DNA from: Escherichia coli
Lineage (GTDB): Bacteria; Pseudomonadota; Gammaproteobacteria; Enterobacterales; Enterobacteriaceae
Direction: 5' to 3' (one strand)
DNA: 64,000 nt
Assembly: GCF_001677475.2 (NCBI RefSeq)
Contig: NZ_CP015229.1
Shown here: positions 4,697-55,857 of the stretch, in pieces
Layout: the number at the start of each line of letters is the position of its first letter
Position numbering within the stretch: position 1 is the first letter of the stretch
Made by a program: the position numbers and the translations under genes
Notes under the pieces: generated by a model
Database searches by the model: none
What the model was told of the DNA's origin: nothing
What the model saw: only the letters and a program-made list of their open reading frames with translations

Positions 4697-4762
4697 GTGT
4701 GCGGGGTTGCCCCCGCACGGTTTCAGGACTACCGGATGCGGCATAAACGCTTCATCCGGCAT
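4697..4762. repeat. REP-like palindromic elements in glpK-glpX intergenic region
   Basis: Palindrome gtgcggggttgcccccgcac plus ccggatgcggcataaacgcttcatccgg resembling the REP consensus GCCGGATGCGGCG. Confidence 0.6.
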
Positions 4763-4767
4763 TTACA

Positions 4768-16949: not shown

Positions 16950-17008
16950 CGTTAAACGTCCATGTATGAAAAAAGCGGCTGGTTAACTCCGCGCCGCTCT
17001 TTTCCGCT

Positions 17009-21198: not shown

Positions 21199-21284
21199 GT
21201 TCAGGAGCCCAATTAGGCATGATGCACATGCTTGTTGGGCTTATGGCCTTTAACACAATTTACCTAATTATCATTGAGTTGTAA

Positions 21285-21314
21285 GCCGGATAAGGTGTTC
21301 ACGCTGCATCCGGC
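21285..21314. repeat. REP element downstream of metL
   Basis: gccggataaggtgttcacgctgcatccggc matches REP consensus in inverted orientation. Confidence 0.6.
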
Positions 21315-21511: not shown

Positions 21512-22405
<894 letters not shown>

Positions 22406-25446: not shown

Positions 25447-25539
25447 TATGAGACGACAATAACTCAGTCCGCCTGGCGCCGATTATTCTGGCCGGTTTTG
25501 TAACCTGAGTGTCATTTACATGATCCAACAGGAAATGGC

Positions 25540-27039
25540 GTGACGCTCAATACTTCTCAGGTCAGTTACTATATGACTCAGCGTAAGAAAGGTATAACTC
25601 AGCATATCTCGGCCATGAAGGCTGGTATCTCAGTCCGTTCTGGTCGTCGGATCGAAAAAGGAGAGTGGGCAAAAAACAGTGTTCGGCACTGGCGCACACG
25701 CAAAGATCCTCTGGAAGCTGTGTGGGACAGCATGCTTGTTCCTCTGTTGAAAGAGAGGCCGGCTCTGACACCAACAACTCTACTGGAGATGCTACAGGAT
25801 AAATATCCCGGCCAGTACCCCAACAGCCTTCGAAGAACAATGCAACGGCGGGTTCGCGAATGGAAACTACAGTATGGTACAGAGCAGGAGGTCATGTTCC
25901 GCCAGCAACATCAGCCCGGCCTGCGAGGCCTGTCGGACTTTACTGAACTGAAAGGTGTAGTTGTCACCATCGCCGGTAAGTTGTTGGCGCATAAGTTGTA
26001 TCACTTCCGTCTGGAATGGAGCCACTGGAGCTGGATGCGGGTTGTTCTGGGTGGTGAGAGCTTCTCTGCTCTGGCTGAAGGCCTGCAGGAAGCCCTCGGA
26101 CAACTGGGCGGAGTGCCGGTAGAACATAAAACGGACAGCCTGAGGGCAGCATGGAAACAACAGGGCGAAGATGGACGCCGCGAGCTGACTGAGCGTTATG
26201 CTACTCTCTGTCAGCACTACGGAATGCAGGGCGTACACAATAATGCCGGTCGGGGCCACGAAAATGGCTCGGTTGAAAGTGCCCACGGACATCTGAAAAG
26301 GCGTATCTGTCAGGCGCTGATACTGCGGGGCAGTAACGACTTCAGCACCATAGAAGAATATCAGGCCTTCATCACTCAGCAGGTTATGCGGCACAACCGT
26401 AACAATCAGGATCTGGTCAAGGAAGAACGTCTTCATCTGAAACCGCTGCCGCTTCGTCGCAGTGCTGACTATGATGAGCTGACTGTGAGGGTTAGTCGCA
26501 GCAGTACCATCAATGTGAAGCACGTCGTCTACAGCGTACCTTCCCGGCTTGTAGGTCAACTGTTACGGGTCAGGTTATGGGACGATCGTCTGAGCTGTTA
26601 CGTTGGCAGCAGCGAGGTCATGAGCTGCCCTCGCGTCAGACCAGAAAAAGGGAAGACGCGGGCCCGTCGTATCGACTTCCGACATGTGATCGACAGTCTG
26701 GCAAAAAAGCCCGGTGCGTTCTGCCATGCAACGCTGAGAAATGACATCCTGCCGGACGATGAATGGCGGAGGCTGTGGCGTCGCTTATGTAATCATCTGG
26801 AGCCCGATATGGCAGGAAGGCTGATGGTACATGCCCTGAAACTGGCTGCAGGATACGACGATATCTCAGTCGTGGCAAAAGGTATGGAGCAGATGCTGAA
26901 TACCCCGGGAAACGTGGATCTGCACCGGCTGATGCGCTTCCTGGGTATAAAAGAAAAGGCGTTGCCGGTAGTCAATGTGATACAGCATAACCTGAGCAGT
27001 TATGAGCAACTACTGCGTGGCAAGGGAGGTTCGCAGTGA
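25540..27039 (+). CDS. istA: IS21-family transposase IstA (up to 499 aa; start uncertain, GTG at 25540 or ATG at 25573)
   Basis: N-terminal HTH-like region, central DDE-type integrase-like region, C-terminal extension; followed by overlapping istB. Confidence 0.8.
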   Translation: MTLNTSQVSYYMTQRKKGITQHISAMKAGISVRSGRRIEKGEWAKNSVRHWRTRKDPLEAVWDSMLVPLLKERPALTPTTLLEMLQDKYPGQYPNSLRRTMQRRVREWKLQYGTEQEVMFRQQHQPGLRGLSDFTELKGVVVTIAGKLLAHKLYHFRLEWSHWSWMRVVLGGESFSALAEGLQEALGQLGGVPVEHKTDSLRAAWKQQGEDGRRELTERYATLCQHYGMQGVHNNAGRGHENGSVESAHGHLKRRICQALILRGSNDFSTIEEYQAFITQQVMRHNRNNQDLVKEERLHLKPLPLRRSADYDELTVRVSRSSTINVKHVVYSVPSRLVGQLLRVRLWDDRLSCYVGSSEVMSCPRVRPEKGKTRARRIDFRHVIDSLAKKPGAFCHATLRNDILPDDEWRRLWRRLCNHLEPDMAGRLMVHALKLAAGYDDISVVAKGMEQMLNTPGNVDLHRLMRFLGIKEKALPVVNVIQHNLSSYEQLLRGKGGSQ

Positions 27040-27791
27040 GCAATATCCATCACCTTGAACATAGCCTGCGTAAACTACGCCTGACACGAGTTGGAGCTGA
27101 ATGGCACGCTCTGGAAAAACGAGCGCTGGCAGAAGGCTGGACACCATCGCGCTATCTTCTGACGCTATGCAATGAAGAACTCCTGTGGCGCGAGAGTGAA
27201 AAACTGCGTCGTTATAAAAAGGAGGCCCGGTTGCCAGTTGCCAAAACGCTGAGCGAATACGACTTCAGTCAGGTGCCGGAACTGAATGGAGCTCAGTTCC
27301 GGCAACTCTGTGAAACGACAGACTGGGTTGATGCAGGAGAAAACGTTCTGCTGTTCGGAGCCAGCGGGTTGGGGAAAAGCCATCTGGCGGCAGCGATCGT
27401 GGATGGCGTAGTAGGTCAGGGCTACCGGGCCCGGTTCTACAGCGCAGGAGAGCTGTTGCAGGAACTACGTAAAGCCAGAGCTCAGTTGAAACTGAATGAG
27501 CTGCTACTGAAACTGGATCGCTACCGGGTGATAGTGGTGGATGATCTTGGCTATGTAAAACGCGATAGTGCCGAAACGGGTGTGCTGTTCGAGTTAATAG
27601 CGCATCGCTATGAACGTGGGAGCCTGGTGATAACCAGTAACCATCCGTTCAGCATGTGGGGCAGCATCTTCGTGGATGAGACTATGGCGGTGGCTGCGGC
27701 AGACAGGCTGATCCATCACGGATATATGTTCGAACTGAAAGGGGAAAGCTACAGGAAAAAGACAGCGAAGGCAGTAACAAGCGCGACTTGA
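27036..27791 (+). CDS. istB: IS21-family helper ATPase IstB (251 aa, GTG start overlapping istA stop)
   Basis: Walker A GASGLGKSH and Walker B VIVVDDLGY (AAA+/DnaC-like); GGAGG RBS at 27025-27029; GTG at 27036 overlaps TGA of istA. Confidence 0.85.
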   Translation: MSNIHHLEHSLRKLRLTRVGAEWHALEKRALAEGWTPSRYLLTLCNEELLWRESEKLRRYKKEARLPVAKTLSEYDFSQVPELNGAQFRQLCETTDWVDAGENVLLFGASGLGKSHLAAAIVDGVVGQGYRARFYSAGELLQELRKARAQLKLNELLLKLDRYRVIVVDDLGYVKRDSAETGVLFELIAHRYERGSLVITSNHPFSMWGSIFVDETMAVAAADRLIHHGYMFELKGESYRKKTAKAVTSAT

Positions 27792-27856
27792 TGTCGCCCT
27801 GAAGGGTGCGGCCAGTATAGTTGGCGCGAGTCGGCAAAACTAGTTGACGTCTAATA

Positions 27857-28355: not shown

Positions 28356-28973
28356 TTATTTAACAAAATAACGATAATGCCCCACCATCCGCCAGCTAAA
28401 CAGCACATCTTCTTCCTGCGCGCCTGCGCCAATGTTATGTATCACCAGCGGCGTACCGTCGCGGGCGAAGCCATCTGACACCACCCCAATATGTGCCAGC
28501 CCGTTATCTAATCGCCAGGAGACAATATCGCCCGCTTGATAGTCACTGGGGTTCTTGCTGGTGGGGCGTGTTTTATCGTGGCGGGTAAACCAGGTTTCCA
28601 GATTAGGCACCCGACGGTGATCGATGTTGCTGTCCGGGCGCTTTAACTTCCACTTTTGCGGATAATCGGCAAAATTCTTCGCCATATCTTCGTGAACCAG
28701 TTTCTGCAAATCGACCTTCTGGCTGCGCAATGCACGGATCACCACATCGGAACATACACCGCGTTCTTGCGGGACATCACCGCCAGGATAGGTAAGCTGC
28801 ATATACGCCGGATCGTAAAATAGCGTGCTGCCGATTTGCTGTCTGGCACCGTCTGCGATGGCAAGGTTGGTATTGGCCTGGATTTGTACCACGGTTGGTG
28901 GAACGGCGGGAGATTTTAAGGAGTTGCTGGTAAATGCCGTTAGCAGGCTGAGCAGCGCCAGTGAAGCTTTCAT
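28356..28973 (-). CDS. yijF: DUF1287 secreted protein YijF (205 aa)
   Basis: ORF 205 aa with signal peptide MKASLALLSLLTAFTS; K-12 synteny. Confidence 0.85.
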   Translation of the reverse strand: MKASLALLSLLTAFTSNSLKSPAVPPTVVQIQANTNLAIADGARQQIGSTLFYDPAYMQLTYPGGDVPQERGVCSDVVIRALRSQKVDLQKLVHEDMAKNFADYPQKWKLKRPDSNIDHRRVPNLETWFTRHDKTRPTSKNPSDYQAGDIVSWRLDNGLAHIGVVSDGFARDGTPLVIHNIGAGAQEEDVLFSWRMVGHYRYFVK

Positions 28974-29098
28974 CTGGTTCGTCCGTGAAAATAAGAGTCA
29001 CAGATTCGACCTTCTGGGCTAACGATTGTTCTGTAGAGAAAATGTCCAGAAGCGGATAAAAAACTCCTGAACAACGTGGGAGTTTCAGATTACTGGCA

Positions 29099-29245
29099 CA
29101 GAGTGCCGGATGCGGCGTGAACGCCTTATCTGGCCTAAAAAGAAAGCAAATTCAATATATTGCAGAGATTGCGTAGGCCTGATAAGCGTAGCGCATCAGG
29201 CAATTTTGCGTTCAAACTCCCGGACAAGCCGGGAGTTTGGAGTAG
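29099..29245. repeat. BIME-like cluster of REP palindromes between yijF and gldA
   Basis: tgccggatgcggcgtgaacgccttatctggcc and gtaggcctgataagcgtagcgcatcaggc (REP consensus), plus hairpin aaactcccggacaagccgggagttt. Confidence 0.7.
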
Positions 29246-29246
29246 G

Positions 29247-30350
29247 TTATTCGTACTCTTGCAGGAAACGCTGACCGTACTGGTCGGCTACCAGCAGTGC
29301 GGCGTAAACCTGATCTGGCGTCGCGCCGCCAGGCATGTTGTGAATGGTTTCACCTTCTGCACATGCCGCTTCTGCCACAATTCGCATTTTCGCCGGGACA
29401 TCTTCTTTAATATCCAGTTGAGCGAGAGTTATTGGCAAACCTACCGCATGGCTAAGTGCAGCTACGGTTTCGATTTCCTCAACCGGCGCGTTTTCCAGTA
29501 CCAGCTGCGTCAGCGTACCAAATGCCACTTTTTCACCGTGGTAATAGTGATGCGCGTCCGGGATAGCGGTCAGGCCGTTATGCACCGCGTGAGCCGCCGC
29601 CAGCCCGCCGCTTTCAAAACCAACGCCGCTCAAATAGGTGTTCGCTTCAATCACGCGCTCCAGCGCCGGAGTCACTACATGCTGTTCGGCGGCAAGCATC
29701 GCTTTTTCGCCTTCTTCCAGTAGGGTGTTGTAGCACAGTTCAGCCAGTGCCAGCGCCGCTTGGGTGCACTTGCCGCCCGCCATGGTGGTCGCGCCGCTAC
29801 GAGAGCAGGCACGCGCTTCAAACCAGGTTGCCAGCGCATCGCCGATACCCGCCGCTAACAGACGTGCAGGTGCGCCAGCGACGATTTTGGTGTCGACAAT
29901 GACCATATTCGGGTTATTTGGCAGCATCAGATAGCGGTCAAATTCACCATCATCGGTGTAGATAACAGACAATGCGCTGCACGGTGCGTCGGTAGAGGCG
30001 ATAGTCGGTGCGATCGCTACCGGAACACCCATGAAATGTGCCAGTGCTTTGGCAGTATCGAGAGTTTTTCCGCCACCGATACCGAGAATTGCGCCACACT
30101 GCGCAGTCTCCGCGATGCCACGCAGACGGTCGATCTCATTTTGCGAACATTCACCGCCAAACGGCGCAATTTCTACTACCAGTCCAGCATCTTTAAAGCT
30201 TTTCTCGACAGTGGATTGAGCAAAACCTAAAACAAATTTGTCACCCACCACTAACCAGCGTTCTGCCAGCGGCTTCAGGTATTCGCCCAGACGATTAATC
30301 ACATCAGCGCCCTGGATGTATTTACCCGGTGATTGAATAATGCGGTCCAT
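29247..30350 (-). CDS. gldA: Glycerol dehydrogenase (367 aa)
   Basis: [24 protein letters not shown]...; iron-type alcohol dehydrogenase family; canonical start at codon 14 of ORF-track frame. Confidence 0.93.
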
Positions 30351-30360
30351 AATTGCTCCT

Positions 30361-31023
30361 TTAGAGATGAGTAGTGCCAAATGCGGCATTCCAGTCGTGT
30401 TCGAACTTCTCTATAGCTGACTCTACCGCAGGGGTGTTGAGCATTTGTTGCGCTACATCTAAGGGCAGGGTGATGGATTCACATCCTGCCAGTAAACAGT
30501 CCAGCGCCTGACGCGGCGTTTTAAAGCTGGCCGCCAGCACCATGCTTTCTGGTGCGTGCATTTCCAACAGCGCTTGCAGCTCATGAACCGTACGAATGCC
30601 GTCTCCGCCCTGGGCGTCTACGCGGTTAACATACGGAGCAACGTATTTTGCCCCTGCCAGTGCGGCTAATAACCCTTGTGCGGCGCTATATACAGCGGTG
30701 CCAAGTGTAGTAATACCCTCTTTTTTCAGCATCTTAATGGCGGCCAGACCTTCGGAAGTCACCGGGATTTTCACCACAATACCCGGAATGGCGTCGCGCA
30801 GGCGCTTCGCTTCTTCCACCATCCCCTGCGCGTCGCGGCTCATGGTCTGAGCAAACAGAATGCCCTCATCACCAATCGCTTTTTGCAGACGCGGCAGCAC
30901 TTCCCAGATGGACTCCTTGCTGGCAGCGATAATGCTCGGGTTAGTTGTCACCCCGGCAATGGGGAATATGCGTGCCAGACGTTCGACTTCTGCGACGTTA
31001 GCGGTGTCCAGATACAGTTCCAT
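30361..31023 (-). CDS. fsaB: Fructose-6-phosphate aldolase 2 (220 aa)
   Basis: [32 protein letters not shown]; transaldolase-like fold. Confidence 0.93.
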
Positions 31024-44348: not shown

Positions 44349-44676
44349 ATTACCCCAGACACCCCATCTTATCGTTTGATAGCCCTGTATCCTTCACGTC
44401 GCATTGGCGCGAATATGCTCGGGCTTTGCTTTTCGTCGTCTTTTATAAAGCCACGTAAAAGCGGTGACGTCAAATGCTGCGAAATCGCTTCAGCAAACGA
44501 ATAAATAGCAGGAATTTACGTCATTAAATTCACGACGCTTTAAATAAGCGTAACTTATGGGAATGTTAAAAAATCGCCTCAAGTAACACCAAAGAGTTAT
44601 GAGTTGTAGTTACCATTTGGGCAATCATCTGAGATTGCTGACAAACTCGTTTACGGGTCAGTATGGGCACGGTTTT

Positions 44677-44716
44677 CCCCTCACCCTAACCCTCTCCCCG
44701 AAGGGGCGAGGGGACT
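44677..44716. repeat. GC-rich imperfect palindromic element in ppc-argE intergenic region
   Basis: cccctcaccctaaccctctcccc-gaa-ggggcgaggggac; stem cctctcccc / ggggcgagg; resembles a dispersed E. coli intergenic repeat family, exact family not assigned. Confidence 0.45.
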
Positions 44717-44760
44717 GTCCGTGCGCTTGCATGGCTTTGTCATCAGCCTGATTTGCTTTT

Positions 44761-51855: not shown

Positions 51856-52184
51856 GGTAGGGCTTACCTGTTCTTATACATAAAAGCAACAGAATGGTAA
51901 CATTTTATCGCGGGTAAGCCAATTGATCCCCGTCATTAATCTGGCTATAGCGTGAGCGGCCTTTGCTTTGTCTGCCCCCTTCTTAACCCATTTATTTACT
52001 ATTAATCGCTTTTTCTTATGGCTGATAGTTTTATCTTGCCGAAGCGTGCTTTTTTGTTATTGTCTTTATGAAATATTCTTATAAAACAAACATATAAATA
52101 TTTTATATTGATGAGTTATTTGTATTTATACCATCAATAAAATCCGTTAATTAGCCTGTTTATAAGTGAATAAAGGAATAGCCG

Positions 52185-53351
52185 ATGATCGAACACTATA
52201 TTCGAGGGTTTGAGGAAGAACTGCGTGAGATCCGCCATCAGATCCACGAAAACCCGGAGCTGGGATTACAAGAATTTAAAACCAGTGCTTTGGTGGCGGA
52301 AAAGCTGCGTCAGTGGGGCTATGAAGTAGAGCAAGGACTGGCGACGACGGGGATAGTGGCCACGTTAAAAGTGGGCGACGGAGAGAAAAGTATTGGCCTG
52401 CGGGCGGATATGGATGCGCTGCCAATTTATGAAAATAGTGGCAAGCCCTGGGCCAGTAAACATCCTGGTTTAATGCACGCCTGCGGGCATGACGGGCATA
52501 CCACCATACTGCTGGGGGCCGCGCGTTATTTTGCCGAAACCCGCCGTTTTAACGGCACGTTACGTCTTATCTTCCAGCCTGCGGAAGAGATGATTAACGG
52601 CGGTGAGATCATGGTTAAAGAGGGGCTTTTTGATCATTTCCCCTGCGATGTCATTTTCGGCATGCATAACATGCCCGGTCTGCCGGTGGGTAAGTTTTAT
52701 TTCCAGCCAGGGGAACTGATGGCGTCAATGGATCAGTTCCATATTACAGTTCGTGGTTGTGGCGGACACGGTGCGATCCCGCACAAAGCCATCGATCCGG
52801 TGCTGGTTGCCGCACATATCACCACCGCATTACAAAGCATTGTGTCGCGCAATGTCGATCCGCTGGAAGCGGCGGTAATTACCGTCGGCAGCATTGTTGC
52901 GGGTGAGGCGGCTAACGTCATTCCTGACAGTGCTGAGATGAAAATCAGCGTCCGCTCTCTTAGCCGCGATACCCGACAACTTCTTCTGACCCGTATTCCT
53001 GCTCTGGCACAAACCCAGGCTGCCAGCTTTGGTGCTACGGCTGAGGTTACGCATGTTAACGGTACACCGGTATTAGTGAATGACGAGGAGATGGCGCGCT
53101 TCGCCTGGCAGGTGGCGTGTAAAACGTTTGGTGAAGATCGGGCCGAGTTTGGCATCAAGCCCCTGATGGGCAGTGAGGATTTCTCTTTCATGCTGGAAGC
53201 CCAGCCGAAAGGCGCTTTTTTGCTGTTCGGTAATGGCGATGTCGGGGAAGGTTCCTGCATGGTGCATAACCCGGGTTACGACTTCAACGATGCAAGTCTG
53301 GTCCCGGCATGCAGCTACTGGGGCGCACTGGTAGAAGCTTGGCTGCAATAA
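52185..53351 (+). CDS. M20D-family amidohydrolase (hippurate hydrolase / N-acyl-amino-acid amidohydrolase-like), 388 aa; accessory gene not in K-12
   Basis: Metal-binding motifs typical of M20D enzymes (HACGHDGH, ...GEE...); GGAA RBS-like upstream; no paralogue recalled at this locus in K-12. Confidence 0.8.
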   Translation: MIEHYIRGFEEELREIRHQIHENPELGLQEFKTSALVAEKLRQWGYEVEQGLATTGIVATLKVGDGEKSIGLRADMDALPIYENSGKPWASKHPGLMHACGHDGHTTILLGAARYFAETRRFNGTLRLIFQPAEEMINGGEIMVKEGLFDHFPCDVIFGMHNMPGLPVGKFYFQPGELMASMDQFHITVRGCGGHGAIPHKAIDPVLVAAHITTALQSIVSRNVDPLEAAVITVGSIVAGEAANVIPDSAEMKISVRSLSRDTRQLLLTRIPALAQTQAASFGATAEVTHVNGTPVLVNDEEMARFAWQVACKTFGEDRAEFGIKPLMGSEDFSFMLEAQPKGAFLLFGNGDVGEGSCMVHNPGYDFNDASLVPACSYWGALVEAWLQ

Positions 53352-53393
53352 ATAAAACAACACACAACAACACTTTTTGGCAAGGAACATGGA

Positions 53394-54710
53394 ATGACGG
53401 CGATCGTAAATGAAACCGTGAGTGTGAAGAAAAAGCCCAGCGGTAAGCGGGTGATTTTTGCTTCGGCGTTTGGCAATGCGCTCGAATTTTTTGATTTTGG
53501 CGTTTACAACTTTTTTGTGGTCTATATCAGTACGCTTTTCTTCCCACCCAGCGCTGATCACAATGTCGCGCTGTTACTGGCATTTGCAACATTTGGCGTG
53601 AGTTTTTTTATGCGCCCGCTTGGTGGAATTATCGTCGGGGCCTGGGCCGATCGCTTCGGACGCAAACCCGCGATGGTGTTCACCATTGCCCTGATGAGCC
53701 TCGGTACACTGATGATCGGCATCGCACCGACGTATGAAACGGCGGGCTATTGGGGAACCGCGACGCTGGTGCTGGCGCGTCTAATTCAGGGCGTTGCGGC
53801 AGGAGGCGAAGTCGGTGCCTCAATGTCTTTGTTGGTTGAATCAGCTCCGGCAAATCGTCGCGGCTTTTACAGCAGTTGGTCACTGGCGACTCAAGGCCTG
53901 GCAACAACCTTTGGTGGTGTTGTCGCTTTAGGTTTAAGCGCATGGCTGCCCTTTGCGACAGGTTCAGAAACCGTAATGGCTGAATGGGGCTGGCGTGTGC
54001 CATTTTTTATTGGCGTGTTATTAGCACCTATCGGTTGCTGGTTGCGTCTGAGCCTGGAAAATGACGTACCTGAGCTAGTGCGCAATAAAAAAGCTGCTAC
54101 CAGCGAAAGCGCGTTCTCTCTGCTCCTGCAACATAAGGCGACTATCGTTAACGGCGTTTTACTCGCTATTGGTAGCACGGTCGCAACCTATATCTCCCTC
54201 TTTTATTACGGCACCTGGGCGGCGAAGTATCTGGCGATGCCTCAACATTATTCTCATGCAGCGATGTTACTGGCGGGCGTTATTACGTTTGTGGGTGCGC
54301 TGCTTGTGGGGATGTTGTGCGATTCGGTCGGGCGTAAAAAGCTGATTTTAATCTCCCGTGTGATGGTGCTGATCTGTAGCTGGCCGTCATTCTGGCTGTT
54401 GGTGAATTACCCAAGCCCTGGCATGTTGCTGACGGTGGTTTTCGTGATGGTCAGCTTTACCACGCTTGGCGGTGTGCCGGTAATGTTGCTGATCTCTGAA
54501 CTGTTGCCGAAACGGATTCGGGCATTGGGTTTTGCGCTGGTTTATAGCATTGGTGTGGCAATCTTTGGCGGTTTTGCTCAATATTTCGCTACGCAATCCA
54601 TCGTGTTGCTGGATAGTTTGACAGCTCCGGCGTGGTATTTGGGTGGAGGCACGTTGCTGTCGATGCTGGCGTTGTTGTACGTAAAAGAACCGGCCAAAGA
54701 ATTGCAGTAA
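53394..54710 (+). CDS. MFS transporter, metabolite:H+ symporter (MHS) family-like (438 aa); accessory gene not in K-12
   Basis: ~12 predicted hydrophobic helices; MFS loop motif [10 protein letters not shown]; MHS-like signatures [26 protein letters not shown] (compare ProP/KgtP/ShiA). Confidence 0.8.
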
Positions 54711-55831: not shown

Positions 55832-55857
55832 ATGCCGGATGCTGGCGCATCCGGCAT
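55832..55857. terminator. Bidirectional hairpin terminator between yijD and trmA
   Basis: atgccggatgc-tggc-gcatccggcat palindrome (REP-like) between convergent genes. Confidence 0.6.

Follow-up and report, generated by a model that had tools for sequence, protein, structure and literature searches.

The spacer between the genes gldA and yijF in a 64-kb stretch of Escherichia coli DNA (contig NZ_CP015229.1; hereafter the window, to whose positions all coordinates refer) raises the question of what kind of repeat occupies it and what that repeat does for the adjoining genes. A sequence-only reading had placed here a cluster resembling a bacterial interspersed mosaic element (BIME), composed of at least two palindromes of the repetitive extragenic palindrome (REP) type in alternating orientation plus an additional perfect hairpin, in a gap of ~270 bp between convergent genes, and had attributed to such clusters the binding of IHF and gyrase and the stabilization of upstream mRNA. 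We identified the element as a BIME-1 (RIB/RIP) consisting of a single unit, one of the well-described non-autonomous repeats of E. coli. Taken as a whole, the account that we consider very probable is that of a single-unit BIME-1 with the history of a duplicated terminator and with putative roles at an mRNA 3' end and in IHF binding.

Gene names were assigned by identity with K-12. The measured spacer is 273 bp long (28974-29246), in agreement with the earlier estimate, and the two genes, taken there to be convergent, both lie on the minus strand, i.e., in tandem with gldA upstream. Read along the minus strand, the gldA stop codon is followed by 7 nucleotides (nt), hairpin B, the Z1 REP, an L linker with one IHF-type site, and the inverted Y REP; beyond the Y REP come hairpin A with a run of six U residues (U6), an 87-nt leader, and the yijF start. 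The features of the locus, in this order, are as follows:

29247..30389, minus strand: gldA coding sequence, an open reading frame orthologous to K-12 gldA b3945
29249-29247, minus strand: gldA stop codon TAA
29213..29239, minus strand: hairpin B, a perfect 11-bp stem with a 5-nt loop, starting 7 nt after the gldA stop
29203..29212, no strand: spacer AATTTTGCGT(T) between Z1 and hairpin B, delimited by flank comparison
29173..29202, minus strand: Z1 REP, an exact match to the short Z consensus, with plus-strand sequence GTAGGCCTGATAAGCGTAGCGCATCAGGCA and GTAG intact
29139..29172, no strand: L linker of 34 nt, with the conserved core GCAAATTCAATATATTGCAG at 29146-29165
29150..29162, plus strand: IHF-like site ATTCAATATATTG, 1 mismatch from the consensus WATCAANNNNTTR
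29104..29138, plus strand: Y REP, identified by consensus match and alignments, slightly decayed in the window
29090..29103, no strand: left edge of the variable segment (TTACTGGCACAGAG), delimited by allele alignment
29058..29085, minus strand: hairpin A, a weak imperfect copy of hairpin B that runs into UUUUUU on the minus strand
28974..29057, minus strand: yijF leader, with aligned patches GGAC, AAGGTCGAAT, and TTCACGGACGAA conserved across genera, the last of them immediately 5' of the yijF ATG
28356..28973, minus strand: yijF coding sequence, an open reading frame with DUF1287 (PF06940), co-directional with gldA

The element as a BIME-1

A pattern search with the 34-nt consensus of the earlier reading recovered a Y REP at 29105-29138 (plus strand, 2 mismatches), and none of 100 dinucleotide shuffles of the window gave any match to this consensus. 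An inverted Z-type REP was recovered as an exact 29-nt match to GCCTGATGCGCTACGCTTATCAGGCCTAC at 29173-29201 (minus strand), and a repeat finder returned the inverted arms of the two facing REPs (29125-29137 with 29174-29186, and 29104-29114 with 29192-29202). The palindromes in alternating orientation are thus present where they had been placed; the expected "at least two" REPs proved to be exactly two, in a window that holds three strong REPs altogether. The GTAG/CTAC ends of both REPs face the L linker, and the IHF-like site within that linker is the sole site of the spacer with no more than 1 mismatch to the IHF consensus. In the window copy of the Y REP, a stem CCGG has become CTGG and the terminal CTAC has become CTAA after a 1-nt deletion; its predicted RNA fold (-14.9 kcal/mol) contains an internal mismatch. 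The substrate of RayT (TnpA-REP) requires GTAG 5' of the REP foot together with a stem mismatch (PMC3333891); Z1 retains GTAG (29173-29176), and the Y REP strand reads TTAG in the window and GTAG in K-12. Overall, the BIME can be folded into a single long hairpin with an imperfect stem (-36.3 kcal/mol, z = -4.2); the whole spacer folds at -86.3 kcal/mol on the transcribed strand (z = -4.75).

The Z-type REP was classified by reference to K-12. There, rayT is flanked by Y and a long Z form with linkers of ~14 nt, and since the literature names the REPs flanking rayT Y and Z2 (PMC2817692), the short Z form in the window is Z1. Over a surveyed 270 kb of K-12, all five short-Z REPs sit with a linker bearing the L core GCAAATTCAATATATTGCAG (0-3 mismatches), all are single units, and in four of the five cases a Y partner was recognized; all long-Z REPs are joined to a Y by a short linker and mostly form arrays, of which REP325 is an example. 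In published definitions, BIME-1 comprises y and z1 in inverted orientation and a long, conserved L linker, often with an IHF site, and occurs in single copies, and BIME-2 comprises y and z2 with short linkers in tandem arrays (PMC3333891, PMC2817692). Each sequence-defined feature of BIME-1 that we tested is present at gldA-yijF, namely Y, Z1, their inversion around L, a site of the IHF consensus type, and a single unit with no tandem array in the spacer. No Z2 match was found in the spacer, which likewise has neither a short S linker nor a tandem repeat. The proposed BIME-like cluster is therefore borne out, and the combination of Y, Z1, L linker, and IHF-type site refines it to BIME-1.

The window copy resembles other BIME-1 copies also in being extragenic, in lying at the 3' end of a transcription unit, and in being orthologous to the K-12 copy at 4137789-4137886, and it shares 86% identity over 103 nt with the BIME-1 located between yiiX and metJ in K-12. 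Nothing categorical sets it apart: it differs in the two degrading changes of its Y REP and in lacking the left external motif ttgctgACAACGTGCGCGTTGTtcat, which abuts the Y REP in three of four other K-12 copies. On the opposite side, the spacer AATTTTGCGT(T) resembles the start of the right external motif that adjoins Z1 in other K-12 BIME-1 copies (for example, aatcttacgctt or atttttgcttc in the yiiF-fdhE and pfkA-sbp copies).

The class assignment bears directly on gyrase. BIME-2 elements and REP arrays (e.g., REP325, which lies between yjdM and yjdN) share with the window element a Y REP and an alternating orientation, but they are built from long Z2 REPs and ~14-nt linkers in tandem, in contrast to the single unit of Z1 and L linker seen here. 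Were the element a gyrase-binding topological insulator of the BIME-2 type, its one Y REP would be in keeping, as gyrase cleaves y-type REPs more often than z2-type REPs (PMC6379681); yet the element has Z1 instead of Z2, a 34-nt L linker instead of a short S linker, and a single unit instead of an array. Moreover, in vivo cleavage and enrichment are documented for BIME-2 (Y + Z2 arrays), not for BIME-1 (PMC2817692, PMC6379681), and gyrase sites correlate negatively with IHF-occupied sites (PMC6379681). The gyrase part of the earlier interpretation was accordingly dropped, and we assign an insulator of this type a close to negligible probability.

Rfam searches brought up a further alternative, that a small RNA, ES036/CssrF-like or a nucleoid-associated REP RNA like naRNA4, is transcribed from within the BIME. 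ES036 matched at 29143-29180 (plus strand, 32.8 bits, E = 8e-4) and naRNA4 (CssrE) at 29064-29135 (minus strand, 32.7 bits), but both matches are sub-threshold (gathering scores, 37.6 and 59.5, respectively) and merely reflect shared REP and L sequence. The reported transcription of ~80% of E. coli REPs (PMC4550694) would favor such an RNA; on the other hand, naRNA4 comes from the six-unit Y/Z2 cluster REP325 (K-12 4325802-4326384), not from a BIME-1, and a scan of the spacer with the sigma-70 promoter consensus returned 0 sites. A small RNA from this element is thus very improbable.

REP-like palindromes had also been noted after glpK, metL, and yijD. The one downstream of metL is a clear Y REP (21281-21314, minus strand; 3 mismatches), but the other two are not clear REPs: the one after glpK (~4730-4766) is degenerate, with 8/34 mismatches by our count, and the one after yijD is a short palindrome, GCCGGATGC-TGG-CGCATCCGGC (GCCGGATGC...GCATCCGGC; ~55834-55857), that has the head of a REP and lacks the GTAG/CTAC tail.

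The site across Escherichia and its flanking hairpins

Comparison with K-12 showed that the orthologous site carries the same element in the same layout (Y at 4137789, Z1 at 4137858). Segment by segment, the window as a whole is only 95.6-99.2% identical to K-12. Both the element type, long described, and the BIME-1 at the orthologous K-12 site are therefore already known. (In the upstream gene, the GldA C terminus reads ...QEYE in the window and ...QEWE in K-12.) E. albertii and an Escherichia-like contig (L132) display the same order of hairpin B, Z1, L, Y, and hairpin A, so the element is older than E. coli. Among Escherichia sequences, hairpin B is invariant and Z1 and the IHF-like core hardly vary, the IHF-like site being conserved in K-12, O121, E. 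albertii, and L132, and changes accumulate in the Y REP and in hairpin A.

At the population level, we queried 5,426 complete E. coli genomes with a 451-nt segment spanning the spacer (28900-29350), at least 80% of which is covered in 4,588 of them; in about this many genomes, the BIME-1 is therefore counted as present at the site. The best full-length match is at most 98.0% identical to the window, indicating that the lineage of the window is not closely represented among complete genomes. In 641 genomes (~12%), an unrelated G+C-rich repeat of 179 bp (CCCTCTCCCCTTTGGGGAGAGGGTTAGGGTGAGGGG...) takes the place of exactly 29090-29211; it lies between the same hairpins A and B and is found at a median of ~6 places per genome; an Rfam search with this alternative allele gave spurious miRNA-like hits only. 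A G+C-rich module of the same family occurs in the window between ppc and argE (44620-44760), within an element resembling a miniature inverted-repeat transposable element, whose terminal inverted repeats TTGCTGACAAAC...TTTGTCATCAGC surround CCCCTCACCCTAACCCTCTCCCC-GAA-GGGGCGAGGGG and whose inverted-repeat motifs resemble the external motifs flanking three of four other K-12 BIME-1 copies. At this position, K-12 carries a tandem of three 123-bp REP units (L006 45345-45695).

The Z1 REP is, in addition, a demonstrated landing site for IS621, a bridge-RNA-guided element of the IS110 family. In 163 complete E. coli genomes, including that of strain HS, IS621 lies inside the Z1 REP of the gldA-yijF BIME, inserted at the CT core (ATCAGGC|CT|AC) with junctions GCGTAG|ATACTG... 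and ...ATACAAG|GCCTGAT; E. coli M10 carries it exactly at the target in this Z1 REP (L003 1779-3056). The window itself has no IS621 at this site and retains the intact 11-nt target ATCAGGCCTAC at 29173-29183 (minus strand), in which its Z1 REP agrees exactly with the REPs described as IS621 targets, ATCAGGCCTAC being a natural target of the element (PMC11208160).

We then considered the two hairpins that bracket the element. Hairpin B, the additional perfect hairpin of the earlier reading, indeed has fully complementary 11-bp arms (CAAACTCCCGG/CCGGGAGTTTG; 29213-29223 and 29229-29239) and a 5-nt loop, and it folds at -19.2 kcal/mol (z = -5.0). Hairpin A, weaker and missing from that reading, folds at -7.5 kcal/mol (z = -1.5), and its counterparts in K-12 and E. 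albertii are no more stable than shuffled sequence. Its segment 29061-29085 is nevertheless a 20/25 direct repeat of hairpin B (80% identity), a similarity that none of 300 spacer shuffles reached. With an intrinsic terminator defined as a G+C-rich stem-loop followed immediately by a U-rich tract of 7-8 nt, hairpin B qualifies by its G+C-rich 11-bp stem directly after the stop codon, but not by its tail, which in Escherichia is UUUGAACG, that is, UUUG rather than a U-tract. The U6 run lies ~150 nt beyond hairpin B, after the weak hairpin A.

Syntenic fsaB-gldA-yijF loci from other Enterobacteriaceae, found via YijF homologues, served as outgroups. (i) In a related enterobacterial contig (L133), the spacer is 122 bp long, lacks REPs, and has a single canonical terminator, AAACGCCCGGC-GATG-GCCGGGCGUUUUUG, located 10 nt after the gldA stop (-23.7 kcal/mol) and followed by U5; the counterpart of hairpin B is thus an intrinsic terminator in this lineage. 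(ii) In two Salmonella loci (L128 and L134), a single hairpin with perfect or nearly perfect pairing, AATACTCCTGAC-GATA-GTCAGGAGTATT, precedes a different REP pair, with a Y-like REP first, a 17-nt linker, and no L motif; the T-rich stretch that adjoins the hairpin in L133 comes here only after the REP pair. (iii) A Pseudocitrobacter locus (L129) has only one REP, of another type, and its hairpin is a different one. From these comparisons we infer an ancestral state with one canonical intrinsic terminator immediately following gldA.

The stem of hairpin B appears to have been maintained. It is invariant in six Escherichia sequences, and when Escherichia hairpin B was compared with its counterparts in L133 and in two Salmonella-type loci, 95.5% of cells were paired and 4 of the 11 pairs had changed on both sides; slid controls gave 36-47% paired cells and almost no double changes (one pair, at a slide of +3). 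This is good evidence, given only four lineages, that hairpin B is a selected stem-loop. In a MAFFT alignment, the terminator of L133 falls on E. coli hairpin A, together with its T-run and the GTCC...GGAC context beyond it, and it is hairpin B that keeps the stop-proximal position and the better stem. Hairpins A and B hence look like diverged copies of one ancestral gldA intrinsic terminator, in which the strong stem (B) would have been split from the U-tract, now situated after a decayed copy (A), with the BIME between the two.

As to the order of events, a hairpin duplication followed by insertion is more parsimonious than a duplication made by the BIME, because two unrelated elements fill the same A-B interval and because the yiiX-metJ BIME-1 has no flanking duplication. 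For the same reasons, we do not prefer the reading of hairpins A and B as a simple target-site duplication generated by the BIME: the two hairpins also bracket the unrelated repeat in the 641 genomes, and the K-12 yiiX-metJ insertion lacks such a duplication. Likewise not preferred was the idea that hairpin A is merely the BIME-1 left external motif, given that the outgroup terminator matches it in alignment across the arms, the T-run, and the sequence downstream. The center of hairpin A, CTGAACAACGTG, does match CTGACAACGTG, a motif found directly next to the Y REP in three further BIME-1 copies of K-12 (left flanks at L006 19926-19952, L140 ~21994-22019, and L006 ~670-695), by homology or by chance. 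A query for an empty allele, in which hairpins A and B were artificially joined, found none among the 40 best places, all of which matched in two pieces (spans of 322 or 378 bp), a ranking that could miss rare empty alleles. The AAACTCCCGGNNNNNCCGGGAGTTT stem was also tried as a marker of a repeat family and abandoned, since a contig scan gave at least 120 matches, almost all in unrelated Firmicutes and other phyla; it is a generic terminator shape, and among the matches listed only the E. albertii locus was informative.

Putative roles at the gldA 3' end

The corrected orientation puts the element in the 3' untranslated region (UTR) of gldA, upstream of the co-directional yijF, and the stabilization of upstream mRNA suggested by the sequence-only reading makes more sense in this arrangement; by analogy with other REPs, we regard it as plausible. 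According to the mechanism that we propose, hairpin B and the REP stem-loops would form stable 3' structures on the ptsA-fsaB-gldA transcript, block 3'-5' exonucleases, and thereby set the steady-state 3' end of gldA mRNA, and they may also limit or uncouple read-through into yijF. Because the canonical terminator is split, termination itself is probably weak (at hairpin A and U6), Rho-dependent, or both, with some read-through into yijF. Such a mechanism has published parallels: stem-loops that are stable and lack U-tracts mark steady-state 3' ends and halt PNPase and RNase II; REPs coincide with 24% of Rho-dependent ends and form a subset of the protective 3' structures found at intrinsic and especially Rho-dependent ends (PMC6061677).

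At gldA-yijF, as at malE-malF, REP stem-loops lie between co-directional genes, downstream of the more highly expressed one, and in both cases their expected action would be that of a barrier to 3'-5' exonucleases. The malE-malF REPs are reportedly the classic case of upstream mRNA stabilization, attributed to Newbury and colleagues (1987), and 3' stem-loops are said to have been treated by Dar and Sorek in 2018. The two loci differ in that malE-malF is a known co-transcribed pair and has a Z2-type REP (K-12 4245133).

With respect to IHF, the L linker DNA is a probable site of IHF binding and bending, judging from its sequence, and this part of the earlier interpretation fits the BIME-1 class. 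An association of IHF with REP/BIME elements was reportedly described by Boccard and Prentki and by Oppenheim and colleagues, both in 1993. The literature on RIB/RIP elements describes frequent IHF sites in the L linker (PMC2817692, PMC3333891). One could suppose instead that the element belongs to the regulatory region of yijF, such that IHF at the L linker, ~180 bp upstream of the yijF start, bends the DNA and controls a promoter in the leader. The element is in fact upstream of and co-directional with yijF, an IHF-like site is present at 29150-29162, and leader patches are conserved across genera; but the sigma-70 scan of the spacer found no promoter-like site, outgroups keep the leader without an L linker (no REP in L133, and a REP pair with a 17-nt linker in Salmonella), and the 641 E. 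coli genomes with the alternative repeat lack the linker altogether. Furthermore, positions upstream of operons account for less than 10% of the IHF motifs in bound regions (PMC3333857). We consider regulation of yijF in this manner improbable.

Several observations weigh against a role of the BIME-1 at the gldA 3' end or as an IHF site. The IHF-like site is a candidate only, being 1 mismatch off the consensus, and in strain MS8324 its core is changed at 2 positions (ATTTACTATATTG). A simple terminator scan of the spacer called none, and no Term-seq 3' ends or IHF chromatin immunoprecipitation peaks for gldA or yijF were found in the literature and supplementary tables that were searched. Finally, the Y REP is decaying both in the window and in E. 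albertii, where it has 5 changes, and the BIME looks dispensable, having been replaced in 641 genomes and interrupted by IS621 in 163.

This last group of observations would also suit a selfish or neutral relic, i.e., a BIME-1 that was mobilized long ago, probably by RayT, landed by the gldA terminator, serves no host function, and, passed on by descent, is now slowly decaying. According to one proposal, BIMEs are non-autonomous transposable elements (PMC2817692). The locus tolerates both replacement and disruption; the CTAC tail and one stem pair of the Y REP are gone in the window, hairpin A is no more stable than its shuffled counterparts, and the metJ-yiiX BIME-1 of K-12 is simply absent from the window. 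Nevertheless, Z1, the L core, and the IHF-like site have barely changed between E. coli and E. albertii, over a distance at which neighboring spacers change, and hairpin B is invariant in Escherichia with compensatory changes across genera. A relic is thus conceivable but, on balance, unlikely, and it would touch only the function of the element, whose identity as a BIME-1 is undisputed.

The junction as a possible landing pad

Beyond a BIME-1 with putative roles at the gldA 3' end, a wider interpretation may be entertained, namely that the gldA terminator hairpin was duplicated in the ancestor of Escherichia, that the resulting junction became a recurrent landing pad (for BIME-1 in most lineages, for the 179-bp repeat in ~12% of E. 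coli, and again for IS621), and that the gldA 3' end switched from intrinsic termination to exonuclease trimming or Rho-dependent termination. It draws support from the K-12 BIME-1 in the metJ terminator loop and from the Salmonella REP pair between the gldA hairpin and its T-run. We regard this interpretation as speculative and, taken in full, rather doubtful. If true, terminator hairpins may be preferred targets of BIME-1, and the duplication of a flanking hairpin could be the footprint of an insertion mechanism.

The metJ-yiiX spacer provides a clean pair of a filled and an empty BIME-1 site. The 130-bp insertion of K-12 (L006 19926-20055; window 16982-16986) consists of a BIME-1 and a small hairpin, ACAACG-TGCT-CGTTGT, and sits in the loop of the metJ terminator hairpin, the outer stem of which still closes (-66.5 kcal/mol); in the window, the metJ terminator is uninterrupted (-20.9 kcal/mol, z = -4.9).

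Two other differences from K-12 were observed in the window. The cystine exporter gene yijE is split by ISEc10, an element of the IS21 family (25447-27856; istA at 25540-27039 and istB at 27036-27791), with ~6 bp of K-12 sequence overlapping at the junctions. Between sthA and fabR (51974-54676), the window has an islet of two genes that K-12 lacks, one for an M20 aminoacylase (52185-53351) and the other for an MFS metabolite/H+ symporter (53394-54710); the islet occurs in 1,505 of the 5,426 complete E. coli genomes.

Catalogs of BIME-1/RIP elements in E. coli go back to the early 1990s, and in this respect our finding adds little beyond a correct annotation. What is mildly new is evolutionary only: a duplicated hairpin that brackets varied repeats, the separation of a terminator stem from its U-tract, and an IS621 hot spot. 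At this locus, REP elements enter at or inside terminator hairpins and part the stem from the U-tract, as seen independently in Salmonella, and a population-level hot spot of IS621 is documented at the exact target of its bridge RNA. Taken together, the locus constitutes a clean natural series of four states: a spacer devoid of REPs (L133), one with another REP pair (Salmonella), one with a BIME-1, and, within E. coli, one with the alternative repeat or IS621. The series could be used to measure the effect of BIME-1 on the 3' end of an operon and on read-through into the next gene.

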